A stretch of 10,282 nucleotides of DNA, taken from IMG/VR virus record IMGVR_UViG_2778261676_000001. One strand, written 5' to 3'. Below, piece by piece: positions 1,176 to 8,870 of the stretch. Numbering within the stretch: position 1 is the first letter of the stretch; every line of letters starts with the position of its first letter. The stretch is from a virus. Lineage: Duplodnaviria; Heunggongvirae; Uroviricota; Caudoviricetes. Below the pieces are notes generated by a model. That model ran no database searches. It saw only the letters and a list, made by a program, of their open reading frames with translations, and had not been told where the DNA came from. Position numbers and translations under genes: made by a program.

Positions 1176-2388
1176 TCATTCGAATCTGATTACCACCACG
1201 CGCTACAATTTCGTCTGTGGCAAAAAGTTTTTTGCACGACAAGTTATCGTTAACGATTAACGAATGAGACTCATAAAAACCACGCCCACTCTTAAAATCA
1301 AGGATAACGTCCGCCGCGATACATTCAGTCGCCGGATTTGTTGCCCCAAACTTATAGGTCGTATCATTAACAACGAGATCAGCACCAGGTGCGGATATTG
1401 ACAGGCCATCTTCAATAAACGCAAAAACAGGGAAAGCAGCGCCATCAACATAGAACACAGAGCGCAAATCATCGCCCTTATTACTCATCATTATTGAGTG
1501 AATGGCTCGTTCATTGTTTTGATATTGCCAGAACATGCCATAAGCATAACGCCCCCTGTCAGTCCAGCCACCAGGCATAACAAATCCGTTAAACTCGCAG
1601 TTATTCATCGGATCGCCTGCGGTTCGCGTTGCTGTGGTGATAATGACTCTTGATGCCAGTTCGCTTACGTAGGTTCCGGAATCCAGATACAGCTCGGTCA
1701 TTCCGCCGCTGTTTTTCTGCGTCTGTTTCTGCCCTAACTGGACAGCACCGATCGTCATAAACAATTCACCACAGCGACCGAGATTCGTGTACGTATTCAC
1801 ATCCTCGTTAATGCGCCCCATGAATGAGAACGGTCGATCAACCGAACAGATAAAGCTGTTCATTGCCTTGCGTTTCACCCACGAAGCATGGCCGCCATTG
1901 TCACCAAGAAAATCCCCTCCCTGCGACATAGCGATGGAAAGAGCAGGTATTGATTCGTAGTACGCCAGCATTTCAGAAAGGATCGCATCCAGTTTCCTTA
2001 TCGGAAAATAGGCCTGGTCATAGTTGCGATCCACCCGAAACTGGAACTCGTGATAATCATCATCGAGCTGAATGAAGTATTTACACCCGACCAGTTTTGC
2101 CTGGTCGAAACAGGCATTACGGGCGTAAAAAATTGAGCGGCGGTCACAGAAATTATCGGCTTCGTCAAAACGACTGGCGATATCGGCTTTGGAAAACACC
2201 AGCACCTGTTCACCAAATTCAGCCATGTACTGATGCCGTGTCTTATCTTCATCATCAACAACGATAAAAATTTTCCCGGTATAGCCAGCACGACGCAACG
2301 TCCGGTAAGTCAGAACTTTGTCCGGTCGCCCGTGAGTCAGAATAAAGGCGCAAAAATCATCACGCATATTCCTCCTCCTCACCACCAT
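1144..2388 (-). CDS. Uncharacterised protein with N-terminal GT-A fold (family-2-like) glycosyltransferase motifs and ~270-aa C-terminal region of unknown function
   Basis: 414-aa ORF from ATG 2388; alternative ATG at 2367 (407 aa) overlaps the upstream gene stop as ATGCGTGA and is preceded by GAGGAGGAGG. Motif series [11 protein letters not shown] / [11 protein letters not shown] / [27 protein letters not shown] matches the beta1, beta2 and ARN..G.Y..LD.DD (DxD) signature of GT-A glycosyltransferases. No Walker A and no methyltransferase motifs. Stop at 1144-1146 lies 30 nt inside the point where the stf frame opens. Confidence 0.85.
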
Positions 2389-3151
2389 GCATGATCTCCA
2401 CCATGCGCTGCGTCATCCGGACAAATCCATTTTCAATAGCCTGCTGATAATCAATGATCACCAGCGCCGACTCCTCGAAAAAACACTGAATTTCAGCGGG
2501 GGCGTGAGCGTAATAGTCCGCAATTCTGCTGAAATTAAACACCGTGTGACGTTCTGCCGCACACAGGAGGAATTTCTCAATATCAGGCTCAAGGGACGCC
2601 GAACGTATCCGGCTGATCAGCTCCTGAGTTTTCGTATCGTCGTACAGTTCACTGATATCCGGTTTACCGCCCGACGGCTCATAAACAGGCGTATCAATTT
2701 TCGTCGTATACGGCTCCTCCTCATTTCCTGTACCGGGCAAAACATCCGTCAACAGTTCATCAATTTCTGTCGGGATGAAGCCTGTCAGGGAGACATCAAA
2801 ATCAGCATTGATTAGGTCCGACAGCTCCATCCGCAACAGATCTTCATCCCAGCCAGCATTCATCGGCAGGCGATTATCTGCCAGGCGGTACGCCTTTTTC
2901 TGCTCATCCGTCAGGCCAGACAGAACAATGACCGGAACAGAATCCATTTTGAGCATTTCAGCCGCCATAACACGACCGTGACCCGCAATAATTTCGCCCT
3001 TTTCGTCAATCAGCACCGGATTAGTCCAGCCGAATTGCTTAATACTTTCTACCAGTTGTGCCACCTGCTCAGTACTGTGCGTCCTGGCGTTGTGCGCATA
3101 CGGTGACAATTCTTGTAATGGGCGATAGACTATCTTTAATTTCTCGCTCAT
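2360..3151 (-). CDS. ParB/Srx-fold (ParB-like nuclease domain) protein with acidic C-terminal tail
   Basis: 263-aa ORF, ATG at 3149-3151 preceded by AAGG. N-terminal region IVYRPLQELSPYAHNARTHSTEQVAQLVESIKQFGWTNPVLIDEKGEIIAGHGRVMAAEMLKMDSVPVIVL has the ParB N-domain pattern including the GxxR arginine motif. C-terminus is acidic (GGEEEEYA). Translationally coupled to the downstream glycosyltransferase-like gene. Confidence 0.85.
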   Translation of the reverse strand: MSEKLKIVYRPLQELSPYAHNARTHSTEQVAQLVESIKQFGWTNPVLIDEKGEIIAGHGRVMAAEMLKMDSVPVIVLSGLTDEQKKAYRLADNRLPMNAGWDEDLLRMELSDLINADFDVSLTGFIPTEIDELLTDVLPGTGNEEEPYTTKIDTPVYEPSGGKPDISELYDDTKTQELISRIRSASLEPDIEKFLLCAAERHTVFNFSRIADYYAHAPAEIQCFFEESALVIIDYQQAIENGFVRMTQRMVEIMHGGEEEEYA

Positions 3152-7283: not shown

Positions 7284-7873
7284 TTTTCCTCACATATGTC
7301 ATATAGTAAAGGATTATATATACCGTTGTTTTGGACGCTCAAACAGCGAATCAGATCAAATAAAACGCACATTTGTTAACATTTACACAAAGTCTGCGTG
7401 GGATATTCTGAAAGAATATCCATAATGTGGAGAGAATCTATTGAAGTGCATGGTGCCGGGTGCCTCCCGGTGAACAAAATGTTCGTGATACCTGTCGGCG
7501 ACAGAAAAGGTTAATGGTATCACCCCACCGCACAGGGGGATTCACCATGCAGGAGTTTTCTTAGCAAACTCACTGCGCGCCCGGCAACTCCCAACCACAT
7601 AAAATGCGGAGTTTGTGGTATTTATGCATATAACTCGCAGGAATTATCTTAAAAAACTGATGTCGATCCGGATTAAAAAGAAGCAGGTCATCATCAGATG
7701 ACTGGAAAAAAGGAAAACAAAAAATACTCATCATACAGTTTTGATTGCAGGGATGAGCCTGCTATGCACAATATGCAGAATATAAGCAAGATAAAAATAT
7801 GCAGGCATATTATTTCGGATTTTGTTATTAACACAACCTTTTTAATAATCATTTGGCATACAATAAACCAGCC

Positions 7874-7900
7874 CAAAAAGAACCGCCTAAACAGGCGGTT
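7874..7900 (-). terminator. Intrinsic terminator in the Q-to-lysis intergenic region (candidate tR-prime-like)
   Basis: 8-bp stem AACCGCCT / AGGCGGTT with a 4-nt loop (7881-7900), followed on the minus strand by CTTTTT. No U-tract on the plus strand. Confidence 0.6.
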
Positions 7901-8144
7901 GGTCAATACAAAGGATGCTTCGTCTTTATTATAGTAATCTGAGGCGTCGGGTGTCTTGTATCAGACAACATATTGTCCCGCTAAACAGCGAATTACAAAC
8001 CACCCTGCAATGATCTCTCATCTCATTTTATATGAGTTGACGACATCAGGATAACGCATCATCAGCCCCTGCCAAGAAATATCAAAACTCCCGCCAGCAA
8101 TGTGTTATCACAATATTGTAAAAAAAACACAGCACCGAAACTAT

Positions 8145-8183
8145 AACTGGTCTCTGTTATAATTTGGAGCAGAAAGACCAGTT
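8145..8183. repeat. Perfect 9-bp inverted repeat (AACTGGTCT ... AGACCAGTT) with 21-bp spacer enclosing an extended -10-like element
   Basis: 8145-8153 AACTGGTCT is the exact reverse complement of 8175-8183 AGACCAGTT. The spacer contains TGTTATAAT (8155-8163, plus strand). Confidence 0.5.
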
Positions 8184-8220
8184 GCCCAACTAGCAGCATT
8201 CTCCCCTGCTTTCCTGACGT

Positions 8221-8247
8221 AAAAAAACCGCATTAAGCGGTTTTTTT
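8221..8247. terminator. Bidirectional intrinsic terminator just downstream of the Q-like gene
   Basis: AAAAAAACCGC-ATTAA-GCGGTTTTTTT: a GC stem flanked symmetrically by A7 and T7 tracts, so a hairpin plus U-tract forms on either strand. Confidence 0.65.
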
Positions 8248-8327
8248 ACGATGTCCATGTCTGCAATCCGCCTCGCGATACAGCTTTGCGAAGCATAGCA
8301 AAATTGAAGCAGTTTATACGTAAGAAA

Positions 8328-8870
8328 TCAAGCCATTTTCTCAGCAAATGATTCACGCATGGGAATATATAGGGCATACTCAGCAACAGCTAACCAATTA
8401 GCAATCCGTTTTTCGCATGTGCTAAAACACCACTCTGGGTGTGCATCATTTAGCAATTCAGCCATTTTGCGCTTAGTCATCCCTCGCCCTTCATAGCGTT
8501 GCCGGAGAATGCAAATCAATCCTGGATGCTCTGCCAGCACCTCACTTATGACTCGATCAATACATAACGCCTCTGCATCAGTACAATGCGCCAGCCAGCT
8601 CTTTTGCTTGCCGTTGATCATCTCTCGCAAAAACGCTTCCAGCTCAGCTTTCTCTATTCCCGCTTTTTTCATTCTGCGCAGGGCTTCATTAATGGCTGTT
8701 TTCGTCAGTTTTTTGGATGCCAACAACTGATTGAACATATTCCCTGACCTGCCACCGCCAATATACGACCAGCGCCCCCACATACGTAGTTTTCCCTGAA
8801 TCCAGACACTTTCCAGCGTGGTGAGGCGAAGGTGTTCTCCGCTTTTTCCTGTATTCGTTGGGTAAATCAT
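8328..8870 (-). CDS. Putative late-gene regulator (antiterminator Q-like) with C-terminal sigma-70 region-4-like HTH
   Basis: 180-aa ORF immediately downstream of, and translationally coupled to, the YbcO-like nin gene (ATGA overlap at 8867-8870). This is the position Q occupies in lambdoid phages, upstream of the lysis cassette. C-terminal LRQRYEGRGMTKRKMAELLNDAHPEWCFSTCEKRIANWLAVAE resembles an HTH of the sigma region 4 / LuxR type. Family assignment is by position and motif only. Confidence 0.5.
   Translation of the reverse strand: MIYPTNTGKSGEHLRLTTLESVWIQGKLRMWGRWSYIGGGRSGNMFNQLLASKKLTKTAINEALRRMKKAGIEKAELEAFLREMINGKQKSWLAHCTDAEALCIDRVISEVLAEHPGLICILRQRYEGRGMTKRKMAELLNDAHPEWCFSTCEKRIANWLAVAEYALYIPMRESFAEKMA

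Follow-up and report, generated by a model that had tools for sequence, protein, structure and literature searches.

Does the start of the late operon in a lambdoid prophage of E. coli carry a gene for a small RNA on the strand that is otherwise free of genes? The question arises from an earlier note on the window (the whole stretch of DNA analysed here, 10,282 nt), which had read in positions 8140-8250 a candidate plus-strand RNA gene of ~75-80 nt, with an extended -10 inside an inverted repeat and a bidirectional terminator at its end. The window is a lambdoid E. coli prophage whose genes all lie on the minus strand (in order DUF1367, YbcO, DUF1133, two TolA-C, essD, rrrD, Rz and trkG), and the area 8140-8330 is most likely the start of its late operon on that strand. 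The presence of trkG presumably marks a Rac-like element. This stretch was found at an identity of at least 99% in ~445 of 5,426 complete E. coli genomes. A gene-free gap of ~1 kb separates the DUF1133 gene (8870-8328) from the TolA-C genes, and the proposed RNA gene falls within it. We consider it probable from the comparison with relatives that the region is a late-operon start whose ordinary terminator, tR', was placed beside a promoter-like hairpin arm by a 560-bp deletion, which would make the arrangement accidental and not a conserved gene. The features on which this reading draws are collected in Table 1.

Table 1. Features at the start of the late operon, with window coordinates, strand and basis.
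Feature	Position	Strand	Basis
Q-like antiterminator gene, 180 aa, Pfam DUF1133	8328-8870	-	E=2.5e-107
Candidate late promoter pR'	8292-8331	-	Block conserved 3' of DUF1133 genes in many Enterobacterales loci
Early-transcribed block TCGCAAAGCTGTATCGCGAGGCG	8269-8291	-	Nearly invariant in the eight sequences of alignment A1
Intrinsic terminator, most likely tR'; perfectly palindromic A7/T7 hairpin	8218-8250	-	14-bp palindrome; equivalent in 21/23 Q loci; identical in L147 and L172
Post-terminator late leader with AGCAG/CTGCT hairpin and right arm of the repeat (8175-8183)	8168-8217	-	Homology, BLAST/alignment
Joint of the 560-bp deletion	8167-8168		BLAST breakpoints at 8168 and 8167; three-way alignment
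Extended -10-like TGTTATAAT, promoter proposed in the earlier note	8155-8163	+	Exact match, inside the late-strand hairpin 8138-8165
Conserved RNA hairpin AAAUUAUAAC-AGAGACCA-GUUAUAGUUU	8138-8165	-	RNAalifold consensus with covarying pairs
P1 3' strand CGGUGCUG (8137-8130), then U8 run (8127-8120)	8120-8137	-	Remnant of the element's terminator-like end
Hypothetical plus-strand RNA of ~77 nt, if the -10 fires	8170-8247	+	Position inferred from the -10

Sequence elements of the gap

The individual elements named in the earlier note were checked by direct reading, and all of them are there. The extended -10 is an exact match, and the inverted repeat is perfect over 9 bp, with AACTGGTCT (8145-8153) and AGACCAGTT (8175-8183) separated by a spacer of 21 nt. 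The terminator A7-CCGC-attaa-GCGG-T7 is present at 8221-8247, and the repeat finder showed it to be part of a perfect 14-bp palindrome (8218-8231 and 8237-8250). The internal AGCAG/CTGCT hairpin exists, with its arms at 8192-8196 and 8206-8210 and not at 8190-8208 as had been given. The remark that no -35 can be recognised also holds, the hexamer 17 bp upstream being CCGAAA, a 3/6 match.

Taken alone, the extended -10 is unremarkable: TGNTATAAT occurs once in the window where 0.58 occurrences are expected, and at least once in 88 of 200 shuffles, which is chance level. Perfect inverted repeats of at least 9 bp with spacers of 3-40 nt number seven in the window, against 1.4 expected. An extended -10 within the spacer of such a repeat was seen in 0.1% of 1000 shuffles, in a test that was chosen post hoc, and the co-occurrence of the two is beyond simple chance. 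We attribute it to the history of the locus set out below, namely a hairpin arm and a deletion, and not to selection for a plus-strand gene.

Searches against known features and families gave little for this segment. The promoter and terminator scan reported neither the extended -10, which lacks a -35, nor the A7/T7 terminator, which it probably overlooked because the stem runs on through A-T pairs; the terminator was checked instead with the repeat finder and a custom script. At Rfam gathering thresholds the sole match in the whole window was STnc100 (7580-7394). Under permissive settings isrK, AgrB, OrzO-P, the Thr leader and others matched the terminator on both strands with 12-23 bits, all far below threshold. 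Among 50,697 records of the phage databases there was no match to positions 7930-8222.

A probable late cassette downstream of the DUF1133 gene

The gene that ends at the upstream border of the gap has several ties to antitermination. Its protein shows a borderline match to Phage_antitermQ (26.1 bits), some phage records label the DUF1133 protein 'antitermination protein Q', and in position and family the gene corresponds to the one upstream of isrK in relatives. Among solved structures in the PDB there is no sequence relative of the DUF1133 Q protein, and the binding sites of Q21 and Q-lambda are therefore not transferable to it.

To see what follows such genes elsewhere, the DNA past the stop codon was read in 27 loci with relatives of the Q protein, taking one genome per species; these comprise 23 distinct loci. 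The relatives share 52-99% identity and come from Escherichia, Shigella, Salmonella, Citrobacter, Klebsiella, Enterobacter, Buttiauxella and others. This showed that a GC hairpin with a T-run lies ~50-100 nt past the Q stop in 21 of the 23 distinct Enterobacterales loci, with a weaker, 4-bp version of the hairpin in one locus (L014). Most of the loci also share the block TTGnnn-17-TTnAAT-5-TAnGCT and a short stretch of conserved sequence behind it. The version of this block in the window reads TTGATT (8331-8326, overlapping the Q stop codon), a spacer of 17 bp, TTCAAT (8308-8303) and TGcTATGCT (8300-8292). By analogy with known Q cassettes, TGcTATGCT may be an extended -10 or a sigma-dependent pause element; the hexamers are weak matches, and their exact assignment as promoter elements would follow from the same analogy.

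The cassette and its terminator are thus conserved, and the comparison makes it most likely that the hairpin at 8218-8250 is the tR' terminator of the late operon. Its core (8221-8247) lies ~80-110 nt past the DUF1133 stop codon on the same strand, and the whole segment pR'-tR' (8331-8218) is co-oriented with the DUF1133 gene and directly downstream of it, with essD, rrrD and Rz beyond tR' on the same strand. When Q is absent, transcription from the candidate promoter would end at tR' and give a short RNA of ~65-75 nt; when Q is present, we infer that polymerase would pass the terminator and go on to transcribe the leader, the TolA-like genes and the lysis genes. The symmetric sequence of tR' could terminate plus-strand transcription too.

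This layout, with a Q gene followed by a candidate pR', a putative -10-like pause element and a terminator, is that of a Q-dependent late cassette. As in the lambdoid examples (the 6S RNA of lambda, phages 21 and 82, and StxS of Stx phages), the promoter-like block and the terminator of the window lie within ~110 nt of the stop codon at the Q position, lysis genes lie downstream, and the predicted terminated transcript would be ~65-75 nt long. Unlike them, the window carries a Q of the Pfam DUF1133 family, which stands outside the solved Q21 and Q-lambda families, and its promoter hexamers are weak. A second comparison is offered by antQ-isrK of Gifsy-1 in Salmonella, where directly downstream of a Q-like gene come a promoter and a short RNA whose Rho-independent terminator is partly read through. 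The window shares with antQ-isrK (RF01394) this order of Q-like gene, candidate promoter and terminator of a predicted short RNA, and in one relative (L035) a true Rfam isrK match of 74 bits lies right after the DUF1133 gene. In contrast, the short-transcript region of the window scores 21.6 bits on the minus strand (8221-8294) and 20.1 bits on the plus strand (8166-8247), where the gathering score is 50; its sequence is unrelated to isrK-type regions (alignment A3), and neither a c4-like RNA nor an antirepressor gene follows. By these scores and alignments, the region of the window is not a member of the isrK family.

Seen as a terminator, the hairpin resembles bidirectional ('I-shaped') intrinsic terminators in its GC stem with equal A- and T-tracts and its perfect 14-bp palindrome. 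It differs from them in that its relatives have only A-rich, imperfect upstream flanks, and in that the window has no annotated convergent plus-strand gene that would need such a terminator.

The leader that follows tR' shows ~70-77% homology to its counterpart past tR' in O157-type prophages. It is identical in the metagenome contig L147 and in E. coli APEC 102026 (L172, a complete genome), where it runs on into a segment of 560 bp. Some close Q relatives (84-89% identity: L008, L012 and also L035) have an isrK/c4-type module after them instead.

A late-strand hairpin and a 560-bp deletion

BLAST searches with positions 8090-8330 and 7930-8222 divided the region into two homology blocks. From 8330 to ~8168 the relatives are O157-type prophages, and from ~7997 to 8167 they are segments that, in the late direction, immediately follow a prophage tRNA-Gly gene. 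The window itself holds no tRNA gene, and the link to tRNA comes from the relatives. The motif that contains the -10, ATAACTGGTCTCnGTTATA, recurs in the tRNA-Gly-type relatives; type B has it as CGTTATAAT and type C as TGTTATAGT, and the L035 type lacks it. In types B and C no plus-strand terminator-like feature follows the motif; what comes next on that strand is the antisense of tRNA-Gly.

What these relatives have in common is a late-strand element of ~100 nt, made up of a closing helix P1 (CAGCACUG ... CGGUGCUG), an internal region, an AU-rich 10-bp hairpin (AAAUUAUAAC-N8-GUUAUAGUUU) stacked on P1, and a run of six to eight U. The intact element has no Rfam family. In the window, the loop and 3' arm of the hairpin hold the left arm of the 9-bp repeat, the complement of its 5' arm AUUAUA is the plus-strand TATAAT, and the U8 run forms the A8 tract upstream of the -10 when read on the plus strand. 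The 5' partner of P1 is present in five relatives (L033, L034, L035, L147 and L172) and deleted from the window.

The variation of the hairpin follows the late strand. Across its four variants the pairing is 10/10 on the late strand, maintained by G-U, A-U and G-C exchanges, against 8-9/10 on the plus strand, where pairing is poorer because G-U becomes C-A. The sole substitution within the hexamer (TATAAT to TATAGT, in type C) strengthens the late-strand pair. The TG sits at the boundary of loop and stem, with T as the last base of the loop, and type B differs there (CG) and loses the TG. P1 shows one compensatory change from A-U to G-C, besides G-U/A-U exchanges. With four hairpin variants in all, these covarying pairs are suggestive of selection on a late-strand RNA structure, and likewise suggest that the resemblance of the hairpin arm to a promoter is a by-product of that structure. 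For the prophage tRNA cluster, the element is probably the terminator or 3' trailer. The earlier note had asked for conservation of the -10 among related prophages: the letters are indeed kept in part, but as an arm of the late-strand hairpin, with the TG lost in type B, TATAGT in type C, and the whole motif absent from the L035 type.

The two blocks are contiguous in the window and separate in undeleted relatives. By BLAST, contig L147, recovered by a metagenome scan for the hairpin core, matches window positions 10117-8168 (91%) and 8167-5044 (98.7%) and has 560 additional bases between these two matches. The same long structure is found in APEC 102026, and in a three-way alignment the flanks on either side of a clean 560-bp gap in the window show 100% identity of both sequences to it. 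These 560 bp extend the post-tR' leader and carry a truncated tRNA-Gly together with the missing 5' half of the element, that is, the 5' strand of P1, a U-run and a GGUCUC segment. Since the long form matches the organisation of types B and C, it is ancestral and the window is a deletion derivative. Among the 5,426 complete E. coli genomes, ~445 carry the deleted form versus 3 with the long form; E. coli D9 (CP010152), ATCC 43896 and NCTC9080 are among the strains with the deletion. This excess could reflect selection for the new arrangement, or equally the clonal inheritance of a cryptic prophage.

The long form separates the -10 from the terminator by ~620 nt and the arms of the repeat from each other by ~580 nt (581). 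A plus-strand RNA is predicted to begin at ~8170, which is where the joint 8167|8168 falls, and the parts on the two sides of this joint were 560 bp apart before the deletion, which means that 'promoter' and 'gene body' are of separate origin. By this comparison, the compact unit of promoter, inverted repeat and terminator is one made by a single deletion. The earlier note had also tied its proposal to conservation of the repeat in related prophages; the local repeat does not exist in the undeleted ones. Within the lineage of the deleted form, the repeat region is identical in all ~445 genomes and ~50 contigs, which makes covariation analysis of the 9-bp repeat impossible.

The distance between the arms also bears on the suggestion that the repeat is an operator for a dimeric DNA-binding regulator, acting on a promoter in its spacer. 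Such a role would fit two perfect 9-bp arms with centres 30 bp apart and the rarity in shuffles of an extended -10 between such arms. The half-sites, however, were not adjacent before the deletion, being 581 bp apart and in different homology blocks in the closest undeleted relatives (L147 and L172). The local repeat is found in no other lineage and no candidate regulator lies nearby, and we find an operator hardly credible.

The deletion joint runs through the open reading frame that might speak for a type I toxin-antitoxin pair, in which a hydrophobic 45-aa minus-strand product (8199-8062) would be the toxin and the plus-strand RNA its antitoxin. The frame exists, its product is hydrophobic, an antisense RNA would span its start codon, and OrzO-P gives a weak Rfam match of 20.4 bits. 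That score is far under the gathering score of 60, the frame came into being with the deletion, the spacing to its ribosome-binding site is 1-2 nt, and it has no Pfam match. In addition, the T8 run within it varies between T8 and T7 among otherwise identical copies, shifting the frame. We rejected the frame as coding for its span across the joint, this frameshift and the lack of a Pfam match; the frame-shifting polymorphism effectively refutes the toxin-antitoxin reading, to which we give almost no credence.

A function of the late strand past tR' was considered as well, in the form of an attenuator-like switch between two mutually exclusive folds, one being the hairpin of the repeat (8183-8145) and the other the inherited hairpin, closed by newly formed pairs (8170-8132) and with UGUG-U8 behind it. 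The fold energies are nearly equal (-13.1 and -12.9 kcal/mol), the second fold is followed by a U-rich run as in a terminator, and in types B and C the GAGACC segment of the same loop has a pairing partner upstream, GGUCUC or GGUUUC. A Q-modified RNA polymerase would nevertheless ignore such a terminator, and the competing 5' arm adjoins the hairpin only through the deletion. Further, the late-strand segment as a whole has no significant z-score (-0.85 to -1.0) and the GGUCUC/GAGACC helix is not chosen in the RNAalifold consensus, and we hold a switch of this kind to be highly improbable.

Taken together, these comparisons suggest the following order along the minus strand for the late-operon start that we favour. 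The DUF1133 Q gene ends at 8328 and would be followed by the promoter region and a short early block, then by tR' (8250-8218), a leader of 50 nt and the deletion scar at 8168|8167. The deletion took out a tRNA-Gly gene in decay, and with it half of a structured, terminator-like element of ~100 nt, namely the 5' half; the inner AU-rich hairpin (8165-8138), the 3' strand of P1 (8137-8130) and the U8 run (8127-8120) are the remnants of this element. Viewed from the opposite strand, the hairpin arm resembles TATAAT, and the U8 run takes on the look of an A-tract lying upstream. This look-alike promoter was set by the deletion 58 nt from the back of a palindromic terminator, and two unrelated 9-mers came to lie 21 nt apart, which read as an 'inverted repeat'.

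A possible plus-strand RNA

A plus-strand gene for a small RNA of ~75-80 nt, as the earlier note had it, finds no support in the comparison, its -10 and its body and terminator having come from segments 560 bp apart in undeleted relatives. The fallback offered in that note, a read-through structure in the minus-strand late leader, comes close to the evidence, with the hairpin remnant, the leader and tR' all on the minus strand. We infer that the plus-strand unit is non-functional.

There is, even so, a physical case for a real RNA of ~77 nt that would start at the extended -10, end at the palindromic terminator and have been newly born, as an antisense or trans-acting small RNA, through the deletion. 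The promoter would have a perfect TGNTATAAT with an A8 tract at about -43 to -50, and promoters of this make-up, with a flawless extended -10 and an A-tract before it, can be active even when a -35 is lacking. A symmetric A7/T7 terminator lies 58 nt downstream with a T7 tail on the plus strand, and the predicted transcript contains no ATG. Folding of the inverted repeat favours the plus strand, with -16.8 kcal/mol (z=-3.9) against -13.1 kcal/mol for the minus strand, and the fold of the whole hypothetical RNA has a z-score of -2.8, mostly due to the terminator. Such an RNA would be fully antisense to the post-tR' leader and tR'; pairing with the first 50 nt of the leader and with tR', it might damp leaky late expression, or it might act in trans. 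The deleted form is, moreover, the dominant one among E. coli genomes.

A precedent exists in EPEC: PasA, an Hfq-dependent small RNA backed by Northern blot and RIL-seq and present in many lineages, is read from the strand opposite to that of the late operon, in the interval from Q to the holin gene. The architecture proposed in the earlier note, an independent, antisense small RNA with a Rho-independent terminator, is like that of PasA and of other small RNAs between Q and holin genes in prophages of pathogenic E. coli. Unlike PasA, the unit of the window is the deletion product of one near-clonal lineage only, and no sequence similarity was found between the PasA locus of E2348/69 and the window.

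Several further points weigh against transcription as a gene. Promoter and body come from different segments joined by the deletion, the unit occurs in no independent lineage, and the variation of the -10 tracks late-strand pairing rather than the promoter consensus. A -35 is missing, and the sequence belongs to no known RNA family, its isrK scores being driven by the terminator. In the literature we found no transcript data for strains with this sequence. On balance, we regard a real RNA from 8170 to 8247 as unlikely. That the deletion created a new antisense small RNA gene, with the hairpin arm and U-run as its look-alike promoter and the reverse face of tR' as its end, and that this gene keeps the late and lysis genes silent or has targets in trans, seems to us very unlikely. 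If true, such a gene could explain why the deleted form, with ~445 genomes, outnumbers the undeleted one, with 3. A functional plus-strand RNA would likewise be a datable case of a small RNA born by deletion, for which APEC 102026 and the strains with the deleted form would stand as natural 'before' and 'after' states.

For the late-operon start that we consider probable, the analysis gives a description of the late terminator, with its leader, from a DUF1133 (AntQ-like) antitermination cassette that belongs to a common Rac-like prophage of E. coli. It also indicates that a 'promoter in a palindrome beside a terminator' can arise from a late-strand hairpin and a deletion, which calls for caution with small RNA calls made from sequence alone in mosaic prophage DNA.

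A structured RNA element and the micro-ORF downstream of its remnant

Immediately 3′ of prophage tRNA-Gly genes lies a structured RNA element of ~100 nt, which we located in three relatives: locus L033, metagenome contig L147 and E. coli APEC 102026 (L172). Its closing helix surrounds an inner AU hairpin, and a U-run forms part of it as well; some pairs covary, and no family in Rfam matched it. The element could be the terminator of the tRNA cluster; more speculatively, by analogy with 3′ETS-leuZ, it might act as a 3′ external spacer RNA.

In the window, the remnant of this element ends in an A8/T8 run (8120-8127), next to a perfect palindrome that is nested inside the near-palindrome TGTGTTATCACAATATTGT and conserved only within the window-type left module. 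Comparison of the window with the copies in L054, L065 and L110 showed that this homopolymer is 8 or 7 long between otherwise identical lineage copies. The terminator loop likewise varies by an A/G substitution (ATTAA or ATTGA).

Downstream of the remnant, GGCAGGGGCUG precedes a micro-ORF whose N-terminus, M(M)[RH][YH]P[DGY]VV, is retained among the diverged relatives L033 (MHYPDVVNITK), L034 (MMRHPYVV) and L106 (MMHHPGVVNN...). This retained N-terminus shows synonymous changes at third codon positions, and the length of the micro-ORF varies from 8 to 21 aa among relatives. The micro-ORF may encode a leader peptide.

Features in the window and in related loci
Feature	Locus	Position	Strand	Remark
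Perfect 10-bp palindrome ACAATATTGT	window	8110-8119		adjoins A8/U8 run
Micro-ORF MMRYPDVVNSYKMR	window	8018-8062	-	
Promoter-like site AAGACA-18-TATAAT	window	7957-7928	-	
Terminator AACCGCCTgtttAGGCGGTT + T-run	window	7900-7881	-	clean
STnc100 (Rfam sRNA family)	window	7394-7580	-	full-length match
~100-nt structured RNA element	L033	about 2640-2745	-	
~100-nt structured RNA element	L147	2583-2697	+	
~100-nt structured RNA element	L172	about 1525-1640	-	
isrK/c4-type module	L035	3982-4184		example, downstream of DUF1133 gene

Candidate small transcripts in the Q-to-TolA interval

The non-coding kilobase from Q, the DUF1133 antiterminator-like gene, to the TolA-like genes holds the probable late terminator and also a match to STnc100, which scored 86.6 bits against an Rfam gathering score of 47. 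Relative L035 carries three copies of STnc100, and a 2026 preprint has linked this sRNA to PasD. At 7873-7957 (minus strand), a promoter-like site is followed after about 25 nt by a terminator; this region would be predicted to yield another very short late-strand transcript.

An isrK/c4 module in place of the pR′-type block

Residues 1-149 of the window's Q protein are encoded at 100% identity by L011 (JARKOR010000130.1), a 5.2-kb contig binned as 'Candidatus Nanosynbacter', which is most likely mis-binned or a contaminant.

The Q proteins of relatives L008 and L012 share 84-89% identity with that of the window. Downstream of the Q match, however, these two loci, together with L009 and L035, carry a wholly different module, consisting of isrK, the c4 antisense RNA and an ORF6N antirepressor-like gene, where the window has the promoter-like pR′-type block. 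This replacement raises the question of what these DUF1133 Q proteins recognise.
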